DNA of 64,000 nt from a virus. Lineage: Duplodnaviria > Caudoviricetes. The stretch is from the IMG/VR virus record IMGVR_UViG_3300029928_000003. One strand, written 5' to 3'. Below are positions 2,409 through 19,273 of the stretch, in pieces. The position numbers and the translations under genes are program-made. The notes beneath the pieces were generated by a model. It was not told where the DNA came from. It searched no databases and saw nothing but the letters and a program-made list of their open reading frames with translations. Position 1 is the first letter of the stretch. Every line of letters begins with the position of its first letter.

Positions 2409-2663
2409 ATGATTAAACAAGATTTCATTAAAATAATCCAAAGTCAACTTGATTGGGATGATAAAATAACTAAATTAGAAAATATTCTTCAAACAGAATT
2501 ATATATGTCAGATATGTATTCTCACCCTACATTTTTATTTGAATATATTATTAAAGATAAATTTACCAAAGACGGGGAAGATATTATCTATACCTATATT
2601 TATGAAGAAGGAGAACGAGATCTAGAATATTTATGGAATAAAGTAAAAGATTATAGAAAATAA
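2409..2663 (+). CDS. Hypothetical protein
   Basis: ORF track 2388-2663; likely ATG start MIKQDF. Confidence 0.6.
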   Translation: MIKQDFIKIIQSQLDWDDKITKLENILQTELYMSDMYSHPTFLFEYIIKDKFTKDGEDIIYTYIYEEGERDLEYLWNKVKDYRK

Positions 2664-2866
2664 TGGAATTTAATAAATTAAATTCAGTAACTGATAAACT
2701 AGGAAAATACTTTTATACTAGTAATGATGATTATATTACTGTTACTAAATGGAGTAATGGAGAAGGATATGATATAGATTTAAATGGAAAACTTGTTCAA
2801 CTTCATGAATGTGAATTAGATGCTATTAATTATTTAGTTCAAACATTACGATATGAAGAAAAGTGA
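2663..2866 (+). CDS. Hypothetical protein
   Basis: TAATG-coupled ORF; ITVTKWSNGEGYDIDL. Confidence 0.65.
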   Translation: MEFNKLNSVTDKLGKYFYTSNDDYITVTKWSNGEGYDIDLNGKLVQLHECELDAINYLVQTLRYEEK

Positions 2867-3164
2867 TTTTTGTAAAGTAGCTACAACAATATTAACAATA
2901 GAAGATTTCTTTGATAAATCTTTTAAGTTAAATATAGATTTAATATCTTCTCCGGTTTCAGACTATTATGTTATTTCAAGTATCTTATTTGAAACTAATT
3001 ACGGTATTAAAGGTAAAGAATTCCTTGATTGGTGGTTTTATGAAAGAGATACAAACAAATCCACAAAAGAACAATTATGGGATGAAAATGGAGATCCTAT
3101 AGATGTAGACTCTATTTTATCTTTATATCAATATATGGAAGATAATTATAGAAATAATTGTTAA
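2853..3164 (+). CDS. Hypothetical protein
   Basis: ORF overlapping previous gene; DWWFYE...LYQY. Confidence 0.65.
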   Translation: MKKSDFCKVATTILTIEDFFDKSFKLNIDLISSPVSDYYVISSILFETNYGIKGKEFLDWWFYERDTNKSTKEQLWDENGDPIDVDSILSLYQYMEDNYRNNC

Positions 3165-3176
3165 ATTAAATAATTT

Positions 3177-3499
3177 ATAGTATATTTGACTTTGACGTAG
3201 TGCTTCTTTGCAGATCAGTTCTAGCACATAATAAACATTAGAACCGTGCGTGTATTCGCTTGTCAAAGCTAACTGCCCTAGGAATCCCGCTCTGTCTTTG
3301 GCCCTGACAACGGGTGCTGGTACAAATCGGGGCGTGCCCAGCATCACAGTGTGTATACATTGGTTAGTAGCGACGACTCCTTAGTGAAAGTCTCAGACTT
3401 TTAACGAAAATAGTACCTAAGAAGGGGAAGGAGTTCAAGTTGGCATATATCAATAGAGTAAAAATTGATATTACCAGCATAGGGGGCCCTATATACTAT
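3177..3499 (+). ncRNA. Candidate large structured non-coding RNA (~320 nt), family unknown
   Basis: GC-elevated intergenic block with many nested stems and a 9-bp terminal inverted repeat, followed by a strong terminator. Confidence 0.6.
3181..3188 (+). promoter_or_regulatory. Possible Bacteroidota-type -7 promoter element (TAnnTTTG)
   Basis: TATATTTG at the 5' edge of the structured region. Confidence 0.4.
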
Positions 3500-3509
3500 T
3501 GTTAATTCA

Positions 3510-3549
3510 GATAAGTCCTAAGTATTTTCTTAGGACTTATCTTTTTTTA
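3510..3549 (+). terminator. Rho-independent terminator
   Basis: GATAAGTCCTAAG-tatttt-CTTAGGACTTATC followed by a T-run. Confidence 0.85.
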
Positions 3550-3556
3550 TCTATTT

Positions 3557-4771
3557 ATGATTGAATATTTATTAGGAAAAAGTTCTGCTGGTAAATTTAG
3601 ATTTGCCGTTATTGAATGTAACGAACAATGGAGTGAACCCGATAAAGGCTATGTTATTCAACGTAGTTATGGGCAAGTAGGCGGTAAAACAACTTTATCT
3701 CCTAAGATTATTGTAGATAGAACTAAACAGAAAAGAAATTGGAAAGAACAATATACTTTACAATTTAATTCGGAATTGAAGAAATTTCTAGATAAGGGTT
3801 ATATCAAAGTATCTAAGCACCCTAATGAGTATACAAATGAAGAACTTAATTCTATCTTCGGTGAAGTTAAAACTAATCAATATGGAGTAATTAAACCTAT
3901 GTTAGCTAAGCAAGCCGATAAAGTTACTAATAAAAAGATATTTGATAATGTTTGGATAGCTTCAAAAAAATTAGATGGCGTAAGATGCCTTATGTACTAT
4001 AAAGATGGAGAAATACTTACTGCTTCTAGAGGTGGAGAAACATATCAACCATCTACAGTACATATTCGTAGTGATGAACGATTATTAAATTACTTTATAA
4101 ATAATCCAACTCATATTCTAGATGGAGAATTATTTAGAAGATTTAAAAGTCTTCAGCAAATTAGTGGTGCAGCTAGATTAGAGAAAAATGCTTATGATTG
4201 TGAATGGCTTCAATACTGGATATACGATGTATATGATACTTCTAATCCTGATTGGAAAGCTGGAGATAGAATAAAACATCTTCTTAATAGTTCAATTACT
4301 TATAATATTCCATTATATGCAGATACTTCCATGGATGAAGAAGATAGTAATATATTTATATTAATGCAAGAACCTATTTCAGGTTGGGATAATATAGATA
4401 AATTACATGATCAATTTGTAAATGAAGGATTTGAAGGAGTAGTAATTAGAAATCCAGATAAACCTTACAAACCAGGAGGTCGTACAAATGATATGATTAA
4501 AGTAAAGAAATATAAATCTGAAGATTTTAAAGTAATAGGATATAAACTAGGTCTTAGAGGTTCTGAAGATATGACTTTTACTTGTGAATTAGAAGATGGT
4601 AGAACATTTGAAGCAATGCCTTGTGGAACAAGAGAACAGAAAGTAGAATATGTTGAGAACTTTGATTCTAAATATAAAGGACATAAAGCAGAATGTACTT
4701 TCTTTAATTATTCAGATGATGGAATTCCTACTCAACCTAAATTAAGAATCTTTAGATTTGATTTAGAATAA
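3557..4771 (+). CDS. lig: ATP-dependent DNA ligase
   Basis: KPMLA, KLDGVR (adenylation Lys), LDGEL, EGVVIR, IKVK motifs; C-terminal OB domain. Confidence 0.93.
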   Translation: MIEYLLGKSSAGKFRFAVIECNEQWSEPDKGYVIQRSYGQVGGKTTLSPKIIVDRTKQKRNWKEQYTLQFNSELKKFLDKGYIKVSKHPNEYTNEELNSIFGEVKTNQYGVIKPMLAKQADKVTNKKIFDNVWIASKKLDGVRCLMYYKDGEILTASRGGETYQPSTVHIRSDERLLNYFINNPTHILDGELFRRFKSLQQISGAARLEKNAYDCEWLQYWIYDVYDTSNPDWKAGDRIKHLLNSSITYNIPLYADTSMDEEDSNIFILMQEPISGWDNIDKLHDQFVNEGFEGVVIRNPDKPYKPGGRTNDMIKVKKYKSEDFKVIGYKLGLRGSEDMTFTCELEDGRTFEAMPCGTREQKVEYVENFDSKYKGHKAECTFFNYSDDGIPTQPKLRIFRFDLE

Positions 4772-4772
4772 T

Positions 4773-5609
4773 ATGAGTAAATTTGATATCAAACAAATAA
4801 TAACAGACCGTAGTGATGCATCTTTAAAATTTTATTTTCGGGATGTATCTAAAGAAAAGAGAATTACTCAAGAAGAAGAGATAGAATTAGCTAAGAAAAT
4901 AAAGAAAGGAGATCATAATGCTCTAAATAAATTAGTTACTGCTAATTTAAGATTTGTAATCTCCGTTGCTAAACAGTATCAAGGTAAGGGTTTAAGTCTT
5001 GTAGATCTTATTCAAGAGGGTAACTTAGGATTACTTACTGCAGCTCAATCTTTTGATGAAACTAGAGGATATAAATTTATTTCCTATGCAGTATGGTGGA
5101 TAAGACAATATATTACTAAGGCTTTATCCAATCAATGTAGAACTGTCAGACTTCCAATGAACCAAGTATTATGTATAGCAAAATATAATAAGGTAAGTTC
5201 TAAATTTGAACAAGAAAATGGTAGAAAGCCTTCTTTATCTGAATTAGAAGAAATTTCAGATTTACAATCTGATAAAGTATCAGAAGCATTAACGTATAAC
5301 CCAAGTTTTTCTTCTTTGTCTTCTCCTATTAATGAAAATGATAAAGGATGTTTACTTGATATTATCCCAAATACTAATGCAGATATATCTATAGAAATTG
5401 GAAGTAAAATAGATCAAGTATTACATCAATTACCTTATAGAGAACAGGATGTACTTAGATTATATTATGGTATAGGAGTTTCTCCTATGCAAGATACAGT
5501 AATAGCCGATTTATTTGATATAAGTACTGAAAGAGTGCGACAAATAAAAGCGAGAGCTATTAAAATAATACAAGCTAAATACACTAATTTTCTTAGAGAT
5601 TTACTATGA
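4773..5609 (+). CDS. Sigma70-family (RpoD/RpoS-like) RNA polymerase sigma factor
   Basis: ANLRFVISVAKQY, DLIQEGNLGL, KFISYAVWWIRQ (region 2); ERVRQI HTH (region 4). Confidence 0.93.
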   Translation: MSKFDIKQIITDRSDASLKFYFRDVSKEKRITQEEEIELAKKIKKGDHNALNKLVTANLRFVISVAKQYQGKGLSLVDLIQEGNLGLLTAAQSFDETRGYKFISYAVWWIRQYITKALSNQCRTVRLPMNQVLCIAKYNKVSSKFEQENGRKPSLSELEEISDLQSDKVSEALTYNPSFSSLSSPINENDKGCLLDIIPNTNADISIEIGSKIDQVLHQLPYREQDVLRLYYGIGVSPMQDTVIADLFDISTERVRQIKARAIKIIQAKYTNFLRDLL

Positions 5610-7708
5610 TATATTTAGTTAGTAATAATAATACTCTATTTGAATCCAATAATTATAAAAAGATATCTTGTAAAGATGCATTACAATTATTAGATAAATT
5701 AAAGCTAATACAGTTAGACAGTGAGACTTCTGGACTAGATTGTCATACTAAAGTATTACTTACTTTACAATTAGGTAATAAAGATAATCAAATAGTATTT
5801 GATTGGACTACTATTTCTAATGAGGATAAATCTTCTATTAAGAAGTTCTTAGAAAGTGAAGATAAGACTTGGCTAGCATGGAATGCTGCGTTTGATTTAA
5901 CTTTTCTTTATGTTCAACATATATATCCTAAGAATATTATTGATGGAATGATATTAGATAAACTGATATTTTTAGGATATCCTCCATCATTAACTCCAGA
6001 TTTATTTACTAATCAATTTGGGTATAAACCAGTATATGATGCTAATAATGTTTTAAAACATTATGAATTAAGTTATTCTTTAAAAGCGGCCGCTGATAGG
6101 TGGATACATACAGATATTGATAAATCAGTCAGAGGCCAGATTATTACTAAAGGATTAACCGATTCTGTAGTAGTTTATGCCGCAAATGATGTTAGGTGGT
6201 TAGAAGATATATATAATGAACAATTAAAAGAGCTAACTAAACAAGATTTATTACGAGCAGCTAAATTTGAATGTGAATTCATTAAATCTGTAGCTTATAC
6301 TAAATATTGTGGTATTCATTTAGATGCAGATAAGTGGAAAGCTAAAATGAAAAAAGACCAAAATAATTTACAAGTGGCTATTAAAGAATTAAATAATTAT
6401 GTAGTAAATCTATATAATAAAGATAAGTCCTATAAAGCTTTTACAACATATGTTCAACCAGATTTATTTGGATTTACTACTCCTGGGATTGCTTGTAATA
6501 TAAATTGGAGTAGTTCTAAACAGGTAATACTCTTATTTGAACAACTTGGAATACAGGTTAAAACATTTGATAAGAAGACTAGAAAAGAAAAGAAATCTAT
6601 AGAAGAAAAACAATTAGCTCCACAATCTGATAAGTTTCCCATTATCCCATTATTTTTAAGATATCAGGGTGCTTCTAAACTTGTATCTACTTATGGTGAT
6701 AATTGGCTAAAAGCAATTAATCCTAAGACTGGAAGAATCCATTTAGAATTACATTCTATTGGTACTGACACCAGTAGAATGAGTAGTGGTGGGGGTGTTT
6801 ATAAATTAAACGCCCAGAATTTACCAAATGATGCTGAAACCAGAGCTTGTTTTACTGCCGAAGAGGGTAATTCCTGGCTTAGTTGTGACTACAAAGGGCA
6901 AGAAAGTTGTTTAATAGCTTCGGTATCTAAAGATAAAGCTATGATTAAAGAACTTAGTAAACCTAATGGTGATATTCATAGCTTAGTGGCTTATATGTCT
7001 TATCCTAGTATAATTCCTAGGAATACTCCTATAGAAAATATTAAGAAAGAATATCACGACGCTAGACAGAATGCTAAAGGAATTGAATTCTCGATCAATT
7101 ATGGCGGTGATGCTCATACAATAGCTAATAATAAGGGTATTTCTATTAAAGAAGCAGAAAAAATCTATAATGACTTTATGAAGGGTTTTCCAGGTATTCA
7201 TAAGTATCAACAATATTGTAGAAATACAATACTACAGAAAGGCTATATACTTATGAATCCTATTTTAGGACACCGTGCCCATCTATATGACGGAGAATGG
7301 TTAAAGAAGATGTCTAATAAAATGGAAGATCCCGAATTTGTTAATTATTATTGGCAAATGCGTAAATTAAGTCCTAATTGTGATACTGTTAAAGATGTAA
7401 ATAGATTTAATAAGAGAAAAGCTGCTTCTGAAAAACAATCTATAAACTATCGTATACAAAACCGTGGGGCTTGCTGCTTTAAATTAGCTTCTATTAAGTT
7501 ATTTAATTGGATAGTTAATAATAACTATCAAGATAAAGTACTTATGTGTGTCCCTGCCCATGATGAATGGAATCTTGAATGCCCTAAAGACATGCAAGAT
7601 ATTGTGGGTAAAGTTTTAGTGCAATGTATGGTTGCAGGAGGTAGACCCTTCTGTCCTAACGTATTCTTAGGGGCTGACTTAGAAATTTCAGATCATTGGG
7701 TTCATTAA
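5606..7708 (+). CDS. polA: Family A DNA polymerase with N-terminal 3'-5' exonuclease
   Basis: Exo motifs DSET, NAAFD, YAAND; pol motifs DYKGQE, RQNAKGIEFSINYG, NYRIQ, HDE. Confidence 0.93.
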   Translation: MIYLVSNNNTLFESNNYKKISCKDALQLLDKLKLIQLDSETSGLDCHTKVLLTLQLGNKDNQIVFDWTTISNEDKSSIKKFLESEDKTWLAWNAAFDLTFLYVQHIYPKNIIDGMILDKLIFLGYPPSLTPDLFTNQFGYKPVYDANNVLKHYELSYSLKAAADRWIHTDIDKSVRGQIITKGLTDSVVVYAANDVRWLEDIYNEQLKELTKQDLLRAAKFECEFIKSVAYTKYCGIHLDADKWKAKMKKDQNNLQVAIKELNNYVVNLYNKDKSYKAFTTYVQPDLFGFTTPGIACNINWSSSKQVILLFEQLGIQVKTFDKKTRKEKKSIEEKQLAPQSDKFPIIPLFLRYQGASKLVSTYGDNWLKAINPKTGRIHLELHSIGTDTSRMSSGGGVYKLNAQNLPNDAETRACFTAEEGNSWLSCDYKGQESCLIASVSKDKAMIKELSKPNGDIHSLVAYMSYPSIIPRNTPIENIKKEYHDARQNAKGIEFSINYGGDAHTIANNKGISIKEAEKIYNDFMKGFPGIHKYQQYCRNTILQKGYILMNPILGHRAHLYDGEWLKKMSNKMEDPEFVNYYWQMRKLSPNCDTVKDVNRFNKRKAASEKQSINYRIQNRGACCFKLASIKLFNWIVNNNYQDKVLMCVPAHDEWNLECPKDMQDIVGKVLVQCMVAGGRPFCPNVFLGADLEISDHWVH

Positions 7709-7722
7709 TAAATATTAATTCT

Positions 7723-10700
7723 ATGAATATAACTAAACGAGACGGATCGATTGAAAAATTTGATATTAATAAAATTATTAATGCTGTAGGTAAAGCATAT
7801 AAATCAGAAGGATATACAATTAATGATGATATTATAGATGAATTAAAAAATCTTACTACTACATATATTTCAGATAATATTTCAGTAGAAAAAATACAAG
7901 ATGAAGTAGAGCAAATTTTAATGGATAATGCTCCTTTTGATGTAGCTAAAGCATATATTACATATAGAGAGAAACATAAACAATCAAGACTTATTAGAGA
8001 AAGAATTGATTATATGAATAAATATAGTCAATCAAATGATAATGCTGCATCTTCTAGTGAAACTGATGGTAATTCTAATGTTACCATTAAAAATGTAGCT
8101 AATCTTGAAGGAGAAGTATATAAAACTACTAATAGAATCATTCAAAGACAACGAATGAAAGATAAGTTAAATGAAATGTTTCCAGAAGTAGCTAAACAAT
8201 ATGAAGAAGATTTAAATCATCATATTATATATACGCACGATGAAGCTAGTACTCCTGTTTTAAAGAATTATTGTATGGCAGTATCTTTATATCCTTTAAT
8301 AGAATATGGTACTTCTACAATGGATGGATTAAAAGCTTCTGCTCCTAAAAACTTAGATAGCTTTTGTGGACAATTTGTTAATCTTGTATTCTTATTAAGT
8401 TCTCAATGTAAAGGAGCTGTTGGGTTTGGAGAGTTCTTTAATTTCTTTGATTATTATTGTGCTAAAGAATGGGGGCCTAATTATCATCTTAAAGAAGATA
8501 TAATTGTAGATACAGATTATGTAGTTAATCCAAAAACCATTGGTCAAAAAATAGAACAATATTTTCAACAAGTTGTCTATTCATTAAATCAACCAGCAGG
8601 TAATAGATCATATCAATCCCCATTTACTAACTTTAATTATTTTGACAGTAATTATTGGCATAGTTTATTTGATGATTTCTGTTTTCCTGATGGTAGTAAA
8701 CCTGTATGGGAAAGAGTAGATTTTCTTCAAAGAAAATTTATGAATTGGTTTAATGAGGAAAGAACTAAAACTTTACTTACATATCCTGTAGAATCTATGT
8801 GTTTATTACATGATGGTAAAGATGTAATTGATAAATCATATAAAGATTTAGCTGCTGAAATGTGGTCTAAAGGACATAGTTTCTTTGTGTACTTATCTGA
8901 TAATCCAGATGCGGTTGCAAGTTGCTGTTTTAGCAAGGATACTAAATTTTTATGGAAATCTTCTACAAGTGAGGTTCATATTAGTACCTTTAAAGAATTT
9001 CTTGATCTTCCCTATAAACAAACGAAAGAAAATTTTAAAGTATTTCATAATGGTTCATGGATAAAAGGTAAAATAATTTCTCTTCCAAATAGACAAATGT
9101 ATAAAGTTATCACTTATAATAATAAAGAATTTATTATGAGTGATAACCATATTAATGTTACGTATGATGGAGAAAAAAGAACAGAAGATTTAACAACAGA
9201 TGATTATCTTATGTTCAATACTTCAACACTTTCACCTGTTACAGAAAATAACGAACATTTAACTTATGAACAAGGTTTGTTAATAGGGTTATTCTTAGGT
9301 GATGGAACCTTTGGAAATTATGTATGTCTTGATGGTAGTGTTCATAGTTTTCAACTCTCTCTAAATAAAGAAAAATGGGAAAAAGTACAAAACCATTTAT
9401 CAAAAATTGGAGATTTTAGATTAGGTACTATATATAATAATGTATATCCTATTCATTGTTATAATAAAGAATTAACTACATTTATAGCGAAATGGACTGG
9501 TAATGAACCTAATAAGACTTCTGCTTTAAATAAATCTTTAAATCTAGATTGTTTTTTACAGTCAGTAGAATTTAGGAGAGGTATTCTTGATGGTTGGTAT
9601 ATTACAGATGGAGGTAATTCAAATAGATGCTATACTATAAGCAAACATTTGGTTGAAAGAATGGAAGCTTTATGTACTACATTAGGGTTGCAAACTATAC
9701 TTAATATATCAGATAGGACAGATGAAGCTGTAATTATTAGAGGCCAAGAATTTAACAGAAATTACCCATTATATTGTCTTAGATGGTATGTTGATGCTAA
9801 TCATAGATGCAATAAAACTAAAGATAAATCTTGGAAGAAAAAGAATAATAGTATATATTGGAAAATTAAATCCATAGAGCCAATAGAATATAAAGATAAT
9901 ATATATTGTGTTCAATGTGATAATCAAGATGAACCCTATTTTACATTACCTAATGGGTTAATTACTCATAACTGTAGATTGAGGAATGAAGTAGTTAATA
10001 ATACTTTTAGTTCAACTACTGGACTTACGGGTGTACAAACAGGTTCAGTTAATGTAATTACTCTTAACTTAAATAGAATAGTACAAGATTGGTATAAAGA
10101 ATATAATAAATCAAAAGATAAGTTTGATTTAGATACTTTGAAACCCAGTTTTAAAGCTTATTTATTAAAGATTCTTGAAAGAGTTTATAAATATCAAGTA
10201 GCTTATAAAACAATGTTGTTTGAACTTGAGAAACAAGGTATGCTTACTGCTTCAAAGGCTGGATATATTTCAATGAAGAAACTATTTTCTACTATTGGTG
10301 TGAACGGTTTTAATGAAATGGCTCAATTTATGGGGCTTAAAGTAAGTAATAATACTGAATACAAAGACTTTATTGCTTATGTATTTAATATTATCTCTAC
10401 TTTCTGTAAAGAAAAGTCTACAAAAAATTATCTCTTTAACTTAGAAGTAGTGCCAGCAGAGAGTCTGGGTTCAAAAAACTATAATTGGGATAAAAAAGAT
10501 GGTTATATTGTGCCAAATAATGAAGTATTGTATAATTCTTATATATACGATGCACATGATCCTAATACTTCTGTTTTAGATAAGTTTGTACTACAAGGAG
10601 GTAAAGTAGCAAAAGCATCATCTGGAGGACAAGCACTTCATTGTAATCTAGAGGATCATTTAAGTAAAGAACAATATCTTAAACTTATAGAATTTGCTAT

Positions 10701-10917
10701 ACAAAAAGGTACATCATATTTCACTTTTAATATTCCAAATAGTCAATGTGATAATTGTGGTTTTATTACTAAACATCCAATAAAAAAATGTCCTATATGT
10801 GGTAGTAATAATATTACTCAGTGGACAAGAACAATTGGATATTTAAGACCTATTAAAGCTATGGATTATTATAGGCAAATAGAAGCAAACAATAGAGTAT
10901 ATAGTAAAACAATTTAA
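7723..10917 (+). CDS. nrdD: Anaerobic (class III) ribonucleotide reductase with ATP cone and intein
   Basis: ATP cone (ITKRDG), finger-loop ASC|CRL after intein removal, CDNC/CPIC Zn site, RTIGYL glycyl-radical motif. Confidence 0.94.
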   Translation: MNITKRDGSIEKFDINKIINAVGKAYKSEGYTINDDIIDELKNLTTTYISDNISVEKIQDEVEQILMDNAPFDVAKAYITYREKHKQSRLIRERIDYMNKYSQSNDNAASSSETDGNSNVTIKNVANLEGEVYKTTNRIIQRQRMKDKLNEMFPEVAKQYEEDLNHHIIYTHDEASTPVLKNYCMAVSLYPLIEYGTSTMDGLKASAPKNLDSFCGQFVNLVFLLSSQCKGAVGFGEFFNFFDYYCAKEWGPNYHLKEDIIVDTDYVVNPKTIGQKIEQYFQQVVYSLNQPAGNRSYQSPFTNFNYFDSNYWHSLFDDFCFPDGSKPVWERVDFLQRKFMNWFNEERTKTLLTYPVESMCLLHDGKDVIDKSYKDLAAEMWSKGHSFFVYLSDNPDAVASCCFSKDTKFLWKSSTSEVHISTFKEFLDLPYKQTKENFKVFHNGSWIKGKIISLPNRQMYKVITYNNKEFIMSDNHINVTYDGEKRTEDLTTDDYLMFNTSTLSPVTENNEHLTYEQGLLIGLFLGDGTFGNYVCLDGSVHSFQLSLNKEKWEKVQNHLSKIGDFRLGTIYNNVYPIHCYNKELTTFIAKWTGNEPNKTSALNKSLNLDCFLQSVEFRRGILDGWYITDGGNSNRCYTISKHLVERMEALCTTLGLQTILNISDRTDEAVIIRGQEFNRNYPLYCLRWYVDANHRCNKTKDKSWKKKNNSIYWKIKSIEPIEYKDNIYCVQCDNQDEPYFTLPNGLITHNCRLRNEVVNNTFSSTTGLTGVQTGSVNVITLNLNRIVQDWYKEYNKSKDKFDLDTLKPSFKAYLLKILERVYKYQVAYKTMLFELEKQGMLTASKAGYISMKKLFSTIGVNGFNEMAQFMGLKVSNNTEYKDFIAYVFNIISTFCKEKSTKNYLFNLEVVPAESLGSKNYNWDKKDGYIVPNNEVLYNSYIYDAHDPNTSVLDKFVLQGGKVAKASSGGQALHCNLEDHLSKEQYLKLIEFAIQKGTSYFTFNIPNSQCDNCGFITKHPIKKCPICGSNNITQWTRTIGYLRPIKAMDYYRQIEANNRVYSKTI
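8926..9972 (+). mobile_element. Intein (349 aa) with LAGLIDADG endonuclease in NrdD
   Basis: Starts CFSKDT and ends ITHN followed by Cys; internal LIGLFLGDG and ILDGWYITDG motifs. Confidence 0.92.
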
Positions 10918-17650: not shown

Positions 17651-19273
17651 ATGAAATTAAATTCTACAAAAATGGGTATTTGGTTTACTTCAGATACCCA
17701 TTTTTATCATAAAAACATTATTAAGTTTACTAATAGACCTTGGAATACAGTAGAAGAAATGAATAATGCATTAATTAACAATTGGAATGAAGTTGTTAAA
17801 CCTAATGATACTGTATTTCATTTAGGAGACTTTGCTTTTACTTCTAATGGTAATTGGAAAAAACTTATTAATGAATTAAATGGAAAAATCTATCTTATAT
17901 TAGGAAATCATAAAATTTACGAATTTTAACAAGGAAACCTGAGGAAACCTAATTATATTTGCGCTGTAATAAATTTATTATTTTATGAGACAGCACAAAT
18001 TAAACATTGATTATTTTAATGAGATTAATTCTCATGAGAAGGCGTATGTATTAGGTTTCTTATATGCAGATGGATCAAATAGGGGAGATGGTATAATATT
18101 TTCACAGAATGTTGAAAGAATAGATATTCTTGAGAAGATAAAGAAGGCTTTAGATTCTGAAGCTCCTATTAGAGAACGAGTTTCAGGACTTTTTGTTCTT
18201 GAACTGTTTAGCAAAAAAAATGGTTAAGGACGTTGAACGGCTAGGTGTTGTTAGAAACAAGTTCCTAATATTACAATTTCCAACTAAAGAGTTGGTTCCA
18301 GAGGAGTTTATGTCTTCTTTTATTCTCGGATATTTTGACGGAGATGGATGCATTTGGAACGGTAAGAGAAAGAAAATGATAGTTAAAGATTCTTCACGCA
18401 AAGAAGGATTTAGAGAAAGGATAGTACATAATGTAAAATTTACTTTTACTGGATGTGTATCCTTTATTGCTCCTCTACAAGAGTATTTGGTTAAGGTAGG
18501 TATAGTAAAGAGAAAAACTAAATTAAACTACTCCAAAGCAAAGAATCCAAATAATTCTACTTGTGACAAAGTGTGTACTATGGAGTACTCTGGCAGAGGA
18601 CAGATAAAGAATCTCTATGAGTATATGTATTCAAAAGCCCCTATTTGGTGCAATGAAAAGAAGTTAAAATTTGAAAAAATATTTTGTGCTTCAGATGAGA
18701 AATCACCTGTAGAAACTGTGTTAACTGAGGAAACGGCTGAGAGGCTAATCCTCAACCAAGCCTCTAATGTGGAGGAAGGCTCATCGACTATCCCTGAGAT
18801 GGGAGTAGGACCAAGTGGCCCGAAATACACAGCCCCTAACGAGCAAAGTCAAGGGTGTGAGATAGTCAGTTCTCATATGAATAAGGAAGTATGAGCTATG
18901 GGTATGAAATACCCTATCGGTACTAGTCTAACGAACTAGTATAAACACCAAGGACGAATTACATAGTCCAGGTAAATATGTATTAGATTTATTTGAAGGG
19001 GTATACAATCAATTGTTAATTAAAATTGATAATAGAAAAGTATATTTAAATCATTATCCTTTTCTTTGTTATGCTGGAACATATAGAGGTAAAGATTATA
19101 ATACAATACAATTATTTGGACATGTACATAGTAATAAAGAAAATACTCATGGTAAAGATAAAGATAGATTAAAATATTTATTTCCTACTCAATATGATGT
19201 AGGAGTAGATAATAATAATTATTATCCAGTATCTTGGAATCAAATATTAGAAATTATAAATAAATATGGCTAA
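17651..19273 (+). CDS. Calcineurin-like metallophosphoesterase split by a group I intron (exons 17651-17911, 18953-19273; ~193 aa)
   Basis: DTH, GD, GNH|D (restored by splicing), NHYP, GHVH motifs. Confidence 0.88.
17954..17961 (+). promoter_or_regulatory. Possible intron-internal TAnnTTTG promoter for the endonuclease
   Basis: TATATTTG about 24 nt upstream of the endonuclease ATG. Confidence 0.45.
17985..18894 (+). pseudogene. Two-motif LAGLIDADG homing endonuclease frameshifted at an A8 run (18213-18220)
   Basis: VLGFLYADGS in the first ORF, ILGYFDGDG in the second; deleting one A joins them. Confidence 0.8.

Follow-up and report, generated by a model that had tools for sequence, protein, structure and literature searches.

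A GC-Rich Non-coding Island in the Early Gene Block

What is encoded in the 392 nt that lie between a 103-aa ORF and the ATP-dependent DNA ligase gene of this phage, a gap that no ORF fills? The window, which is the whole stretch of 64,000 nucleotides analyzed here, carries plus-strand genes head to tail across its first ~27 kb. Within this block the gap is a non-coding island (3165-3556) of 48% GC in a phage that itself has 27-29% GC (29% overall). GC content over 200-nt segments peaked at 0.48 at 3201-3400, whereas both flanks were at 0.23-0.32, and the island is one of the two most GC-rich spots within the 64 kb. The sole other stretch, at 18700-18900, reaches about 51% GC. The minimum free energy of the island has a z-score of -3.4, and none of 100 shuffles folded as well. 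The neighboring genes are:

2853-3164, plus strand: 103-aa ORF (ORF104 family), the upstream neighbor; its stop overlaps the ligase start in most relatives
3557-4771, plus strand: ATP-dependent DNA ligase, followed by a sigma-70 factor, PolA (family A DNA polymerase) and NrdD with an intein

The preliminary description of this DNA, made from the letters alone, had noted a GC-elevated non-coding island in an AT-rich operon, upstream of a ligase/sigma/polymerase block. Both observations were borne out by the contrast with the flanks (48% vs 23-32% GC) and by the ligase, sigma-70 factor and family A polymerase genes found 3' of the island. The NrdD gene (7696-10917, 1073 aa) has an intein-splicing domain between two NRDD halves, and the NrdD homolog of one relative (L085, 737 aa) is without the intein.

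On sequence evidence, the island encodes a folded non-coding RNA that belongs to a new family. The kind to which it belongs, the large structured phage RNA of undefined role, is already familiar; the family is new.

Homologs and Distribution

The family so far comprises five sequences in four lineages, all in uncultivated, related phages that have recoded TAG. Besides the window RNA, L041 and L043 were found by a scan of IMG/VR for the spaced helix pattern, and L085, which is close to L043, by 17-mer scanning of metagenomes. R1, a covariance model that covers the central 176 nt, was applied to 25 genomes and records (24 virus records and one MAG, G001) and found the fifth and much more divergent member, L100 in G013 (30 bits, E 8e-6), and nothing credible in the other relatives among them. 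The pattern and 17-mer scans also recovered near-identical copies of the window RNA, one of them on a 17-kb phage-like contig binned into a Candidatus Melainabacteria MAG. In a 17-mer scan of 185,579 species genomes the RNA was found only on this contig. Its binning may be artefactual, and R1 gave no sign of a cellular origin in 100 bacterial relatives of the MAG.

Two further pattern scans gave no more members and nhmmer with the window sequence returned only a 98%-identical copy. BLAST of the island found only a terminator look-alike in Listeria phages among 50,697 phage records, and nothing in 21 whole records of relatives. Chance matches from the pattern scans (L042, L045-L068, L105, L106 and most metagenome and genome matches) were dropped after profile checks. 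Since the scans and the model gave five sequences only, the family is rare and so far confined to phages. A literature search returned no description of this RNA, and a large screen of IMG/VR, in which motifs average 67 nt, names no such element (PMC10690425).

Conserved Structure and Covariation

The predicted fold is some twelve helices joined by three pseudoknots, with a core of about 300 nt (about 350 nt including the terminator). Its elements in the window are:

3198-3494, plus strand: conserved RNA core from UAGUGC to CUAUAU, used for alignments and pair counts
3177-3185/3491-3499, plus strand: weakly supported candidate outer stem P1
3200-3227, plus strand: PK2, the 5'-end GUGC (3200-3203) with GCAC (3224-3227) at the start of the P3 loop
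3206-3268, plus strand: P2, CUUUG (3206-3210) with CAAAG (3264-3268), enclosing P3 and P3a
3218-3224/3238-3244, plus strand: P3 (GTTCTA/TAGAAC), with the invariant 13-nt loop ACAUAAUAAA
3248-3250/3257-3259, plus strand: P3a, inside P2
3269-3367, plus strand: P4, CUAAC (3269-3273) with GUUAG (3363-3367), the closing helix of the central domain, unchanged among all five sequences
3275-3279/3329-3333, plus strand: P7, its 3' strand within the P6 loop, a pseudoknot
3286-3314, plus strand: P5 hairpin, 3286-3289/3311-3314 and 3293-3296/3306-3309, with an invariant CUC/A internal loop (GCUCUG...CAAC)
3300-3305/3483-3488, plus strand: PK1, pairing of the P5 loop and the 3' tail, with double-sided changes in four of six pairs
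3315-3343, plus strand: P6, UGCUGG (3315-3320) with CCAGCA (3338-3343)
3347-3362, plus strand: P8 hairpin, A-U to C-G in three sequences and one G.U pair
3376-3382/3428-3434, plus strand: P9, enclosing P10 and the invariant single strand; two compensatory pairs
3387-3392/3396-3401, plus strand: P10, four compensatory pairs; AU-rich in L100
3402-3427, plus strand: invariant single strand with core ACCUAAGAAGGG
3440-3443/3474-3477, plus strand: P11, enclosing P12
3447-3454/3464-3471, plus strand: P12, a variable hairpin

Because the 3' strand of P7 lies inside the P6 loop, the RNA has three pseudoknots. Alignment A3, with four sequences, holds 13 helices, two of them as pseudoknots, and thus 68 pairs and 272 cells. 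The conservation of this structure is demonstrated by 98.5% of the cells being paired, compared with 36-48% in controls slid by 1-3 columns, and by 13 of the 68 pairs being changed on both sides, compared with 1-3 in the same controls. In 500 shuffles the observed number of paired cells, the numbers of pairs and of cells with double-sided changes, and the covariation score were never reached; further pair types were no more numerous than in the shuffles (325/500). Most double changes fall in P10 (four pairs), PK1 (four), P9 (two) and P7 (two). With five sequences in four lineages, the family offers few independent covariation events.

The divergent L100 provides an independent test, as P3, P5a, P6, P7, P9, P10, P11, PK1 and PK2 are rewritten in it with pairing kept. 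P7 reads GCCCU/GGGGC in the window, GUCCG/CGGAC in L041 and AACGUG/CACGUU in L100, and P5a changes from CCCG/CGGG in the window to CCUCG/CGAGG in L043 and CCAUG/CAUGG in L100. The window and L100 have ACUCCUU/AAGGAGU and GGCCUC/GAGGCU in P9, and UUGG/CCAG and CCAGC/GCUGG in P11. PK1, whose 5' strand is the apical loop of P5, is GGCCCU/GGGGCC in the window, GACCCC/GGGGUC in L041, AAUCCU/AGGAUU in L043 and CAACUCC/GGAGUUG in L100. Smaller changes in L100 are one G-C pair of P3 that became U-A and one compensatory pair in PK2 (GUCC/GGAC). P6, invariant in four sequences, is CCAG/CUGG there, and P2, also invariant in four, is not kept in L100, which lacks CAAAG.

Long unpaired stretches are invariant as well, namely the single strand ACCUAAGAAGGG, the P3 loop ACAUAAUAAA and the P5 internal loop GCUCUG/CAAC. 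A candidate pairing of CUUCUU (3203-3208) with AAGAAG (3419-3424) is likewise invariant in all five sequences, with no informative variation. About 78 extra nt are present in the P11/P12 region of L041 in A3. RNAalifold suggested a 5'/3' helix of CUUCU with AGGGG, which was rejected in favor of PK1 because it overlaps PK1 and changes on one side only.

Most of the pairings drawn in the preliminary description are real. GTTCTA/TAGAAC (P3) and GCTAAC/GTTAGT (P4) are conserved in the homologs, and CCCG..TGTC/GACA..CGGG (P5), GTGCTGG/CCAGCAT (P6), ACTCCTT/AAGGAGT (P9) and AAAGTC/GACTTT (P10) are conserved with compensatory changes. The guessed pseudoknot of GGCCCT (3300) with GGGGCC (3483) is PK1 and turned out to be the best supported of all pairings. 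The pairing ATATCAAT/ATTGATAT lies within the variable hairpin, where homologs have other hairpins instead. CTTTGAC (3190) with GTCAAAG (3262) has its 5' strand in an insertion specific to the window, and the alternative, CUUUG (3206-3210) with CAAAG, is possible in three of the four other copies. As for the outer stem ATAGTATAT/ATATACTAT, it is present yet rises only slightly above chance in the AT-rich flank, with shuffles matching it in 16% (window), 74% (L041), 2% (L043) and 12% (L100) of cases. A flanking TAnnTTTG motif (TATATTTG, 3181-3188) is present in the window and not conserved in homologs.

Strand, Transcription and Termination

The RNA is read from the plus strand, since the conserved G.U pairs in P3, P7, P8, P11 and PK1 would be C.A mismatches on the other strand and the terminators are on the plus strand. 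Substitutions track base pairs and not codons, and no ORF is conserved, which establishes that the RNA is non-coding. Two features that bear on its transcription are:

3158-3186, plus strand: sigma-70-like promoter match (TTGTTA, 17 nt, TATATT), weak and within chance expectation
3509-3549, plus strand: intrinsic terminator, a 14-bp stem (3509-3542) with a 6-nt loop and a T-run

The hairpin at 3509-3542 is the only terminator-like site in 2500-4500, and the 13-bp terminator first described is thereby confirmed as a 14-bp stem with T-run. The window and L043/L085 have a clear terminator, L041 a weaker one and L100 none. That of L043/L085 is an 11-bp hairpin with a U-run, unrelated to the one in the window; among the lineages the terminators are unrelated in sequence, and variable spacers separate them from the fold. 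In L041 a TATAAT-like sequence follows 3' of the terminator. Promoters near the RNA were not above chance (10 sites found vs 12.6 expected), and in all lineages the conserved UAGU is preceded, at a distance of 5-12 nt, by -10-like hexamers in AT-rich flanks. With no promoter above chance, the RNA could belong to an operon transcript. Of the stand-alone ncRNA first described, the structured non-coding RNA stands, with its covariation and its lack of a conserved ORF, whereas the discrete transcript is a candidate only, and it is from sequence features that we infer independent transcription.

Insertion Sites and Mobility

The early DNA-metabolism block is syntenic across the clade (ORF172, exonuclease VIII-like, ..., ORF264, nrdD, ..., ORF104, ligase) and the position of the RNA in it varies:

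ORF104/ligase junction: RNA in the window, G002 and G024 (L041)
ORF264/nrdD junction: RNA in G025 (L043) and L085
ORF172/exonuclease junction: RNA in G013 (L100)

The gene 3' of the RNA is therefore the ligase, nrdD or the exonuclease VIII-like gene, depending on the lineage. Relatives without the RNA have gaps of 0-60 nt at these junctions. Of 28 relatives fetched via the ligase protein, most have an ORF104 homolog that runs into the ligase start (TAATGA) and leaves no gap. Most genes of G024 are shared by G006, which is without the RNA. Complete relatives are 155-225 kb. Because three junctions are occupied that are empty in relatives, and because the RNA has its own terminator-like hairpins, it resembles a moron-like self-contained cassette. 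Its movement as a unit between junctions implies a function of its own.

At the ORF104/ligase junction, three other loci (L017:2060-2998, L004:2116-2989, L024:2832-3001) have insertions of 170-940 nt that are unrelated to the RNA and lack a long ORF, which points to this junction as an insertion hotspot. The window and its nearest record, G002, are mosaic. They are 98% identical on both sides of window positions 4768-7721 (G002:C1:33990-36728), megablast gave no alignment between them across the sigma factor and polymerase genes in that interval, and in late regions identity is 86-90% or less. Split ligase genes occur in L025, L026 and L028, a split PolA gene in G025:C1:141771-144876 and a LAGLIDADG endonuclease gene at L085:1702-2589; mobile introns, inteins or homing genes appear to be common in this clade.

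Possible Function of the RNA

We propose that the island encodes a trans-acting folded RNA made early in infection, with a probability of roughly 0.6. The RNA would be made early from the plus strand, end at its own terminator and work in trans through its three-dimensional fold. The fold might act as scaffold or decoy towards a protein, either of the host or a conserved one of the phage; alternatively, it might be a ribozyme. The cassette would have landed at different junctions of the early DNA-metabolism operon in a small AT-rich phage clade. Action in trans, like any molecular target, is something that we infer. A comparison of gene content gave no G024 gene that is present in G025 and G013 yet absent from G003, G015, G006 and G005. 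As no protein gene co-occurs with the RNA, a role in an RNP would be one with no named partner. Phage sequences complementary to the invariant loops were not enriched.

The first alternative is a cis-acting leader, riboswitch-like or protein-binding, which would control read-through into the DNA-metabolism genes by means of the terminator. In every lineage the RNA is directly upstream of a co-oriented ligase, nrdD or exonuclease VIII-like gene, and in three lineages a terminator lies between the RNA and that gene. However, nearly all early genes are co-oriented DNA-metabolism genes, so the position of the RNA says little about a leader role, and relatives have the same genes without such a leader. 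The terminators themselves are strong and of unrelated sequence, with variable spacers between them and the fold. No conserved anti-terminator or alternative pairing was seen, L100 is without a clear terminator, and the TATAAT-like sequence of L041 comes after the terminator. No riboswitch family matched at E<=10, and at ~300 nt with three pseudoknots the RNA exceeds known aptamers in size. For these reasons we consider a leader unlikely.

Secondly, the RNA could be a selfish element or its relic, intron-like or a self-processing ribozyme, that spreads between junctions with no benefit for the phage. Its distribution is patchy, the three insertion sites occur beside empty sites, and the clade is rich in mobile elements (the NrdD intein, the LAGLIDADG gene, the split ligase and PolA genes). 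However, the element is intergenic and sits between complete genes that abut in relatives, so that splicing would restore nothing. Group I and group II introns gave no match in three members even at E<=10, and the nucleotide before the downstream ATG is not G. No endonuclease gene is associated with the element. A decaying relic is argued against by the compensatory change that keeps the fold across lineages. This explanation seems to us improbable.

Thirdly, a factor in translation or code switching was considered, that is, an RNA that helps to read TAG late in infection via release factor 1, suppressor tRNA maturation or ribosomes. On the minus strand (30-64 kb), large late ORFs need TAG as a sense codon to stay open, for example those of 2323 and 3188 codons. 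Between 30102 and 63782 the minus strand has twelve ORFs of 191-3188 codons with TAG read-through, which are fragments under code 11; PHROG gave no match for eight late proteins read with TAG as Q. Homologs of one late protein have in-frame TAGs and no other stop in all 21 matching records, so that in-frame TAGs, and only TAGs, occur in late genes of this phage and of all relatives tested. The P5-P6 module of the RNA also resembles freshwater-1, an RNA embedded in phage tRNA arrays. However, only three of the 21 records have the RNA (G002, G013, G024; G025 gave no match), and the 18 RNA-free relatives carry the same in-frame TAGs. A tRNA(CUA) is present in the RNA-positive G024 and G013 and also in the RNA-negative G003, G015 and G006, whereby an anticorrelation between suppressor tRNA and the RNA was rejected; the window has no suppressor tRNA. 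Since TAGs and tRNA(CUA) occur with or without the RNA, it is neither needed for recoding nor a stand-in for a suppressor tRNA. The RNA is not near tRNA genes, and its likeness to freshwater-1 is local and below threshold. The role in code switching mentioned in the preliminary description finds no support, as relatives read TAG as sense whether or not they have the RNA, and we regard such a factor as distinctly improbable.

Lastly, a small protein gene or a functionless GC-rich spacer can practically be dismissed, although three lineages share a 40-aa minus-strand ORF with the ending ...VSFDKR[IL]HARF and the window has two more ORFs, of 74 aa (minus strand) and 44 aa (plus strand), since the 40-aa ORF is frameshifted in L043 and absent in L100, the substitutions are compensatory base-pair changes, and a spacer would not keep 68 pairs and three pseudoknots.

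To our knowledge, natural RNAs of ~300 nt with three covariation-supported pseudoknots are rare. Most of the characterized RNAs of this sort are ribozymes, tmRNA, or large ornate RNAs with open roles. The present one is small enough for chemical probing and cryo-EM, and natural compensatory variants are supplied with it. It is found in phages that switch the genetic code during infection, it has a module in common with an RNA of tRNA arrays, and it gives a concrete handle on a little-explored group of phage RNAs. If it were merely a rare accessory RNA with a modest regulatory role, it would still be a clean new Rfam family.

Comparison With Known RNA Families

No Rfam 15 family, including RNase P RNA, 6S RNA, SRP RNA, ROOL, GOLLD and HEARO, matched the 64-kb window at gathering thresholds. 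At E<=10 the island, L041 and L043 gave chance-level matches and no riboswitch family. ARAGORN found no tRNA or tmRNA in the window, which, with no group I match at E<=10, agrees with the absence of tRNA, tmRNA and group I signatures first described. No curated family thus claims the RNA in the window, L041 or L043. The preliminary description had named a lack of covariation among homologs and a match to a known Rfam family as findings that would count against it; neither applies, because covariation exists and no Rfam family matches.

The sole repeated weak Rfam match is freshwater-1 (RF02979), which aligns with the P5-P6 module at 15.2 bits in the window and 15.1 bits in L041, against a gathering threshold of 72 and scores of 74-85 bits for true members; the model gave no match in L043. 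Both RNAs are phage-borne and share two adjacent hairpins, in which CCYGCUCUG, a stem-loop and CAACRGGUG run into the next hairpin, with an identical CUC/A internal loop. The letters CCYGCUCUG...CAACRGG of the two hairpins are invariant in all five sequences of the family. R1 picked the freshwater-1 site in ten freshwater-1 loci (full-length or local matches), a test that is partly circular because the loci were fetched with a pattern from the same module. An extended freshwater-1 model ranked this RNA first and second in 40.8 kb (E 0.02 and 0.065) and aligned only the P5-P6 module; nhmmer with the 187-nt extended freshwater-1 profile found nothing.

The two RNAs correspond over only about 55 of 300 nt. 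Freshwater-1 members lie inside phage tRNA arrays, whereas this RNA is not near tRNA genes (the window has no tRNA, and in G024, G025 and G013 the RNA is far from tRNA genes). The P5 loop of freshwater-1 has 4 nt, whereas here the P5 and P6 loops form pseudoknots. We therefore take the likeness to mean a module in common, and perhaps distant kinship, rather than membership. It is doubtful, though conceivable, that the RNA stands for a new class of large RNA, catalytic or RNP-forming, which hops as a cassette from one gene junction to another in stop-codon-recoded phages, is distantly related to freshwater-1 via P5-P6 and defines a wider phage RNA superfamily acting on the host translation or RNA-processing machinery.

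The 62-nt freshwater-1 motif itself is the 3' portion of a bigger conserved RNA, which spans ~160 nt or more, adds three helices and has double-sided changes in 19 of its 31 predicted pairs. This larger RNA occurs in phage tRNA arrays (L116, L119, L149, L134, L144 and others; for example L149:4237-4420), often directly 3' of a tRNA end, and L119 also has a pistol ribozyme at 3922-3985. The text of PMC5737381 does not mention the freshwater-1 motif.

Compared with tmRNA, the RNA is of similar size, with several H-type pseudoknots and a possible 5'/3' closing stem, but it has no GGGG 5' acceptor end, T-arm, ACCA tail or conserved tag frame, and the Rfam tmRNA models gave no match at E<=10. An RNA-free relative of L005, G006, has a full tmRNA of 336 nt on the minus strand (G006:C1:119962-120297) with a GGGG 5' end, a T-arm, an ACCA tail and the tag GEVNNTSVSYAIAA.

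The resemblance to phage morons, which are autonomous units of promoter, gene and terminator set between conserved genes, is in the atypical GC content, the insertion at junctions that are contiguous in relatives and the presence or absence among close relatives. A terminator lies 3' of the RNA in three of the four lineages, as morons would have it, with a promoter match that is not above chance. Unlike in morons, the cargo is an RNA instead of a protein gene.

ROOL and GOLLD are pseudoknotted RNAs of patchy distribution and without a known partner protein. They are large, highly structured RNAs of phages or prophages (bioRxiv 10.1101/2024.12.08.627333). They are roughly 580-800 nt, compared with ~300 nt here, their Rfam models do not match and this RNA does not adjoin tRNAs. 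Still, ROOL and GOLLD are, like the RNA described here, carried by phages, highly structured, pseudoknotted and patchy in their distribution.
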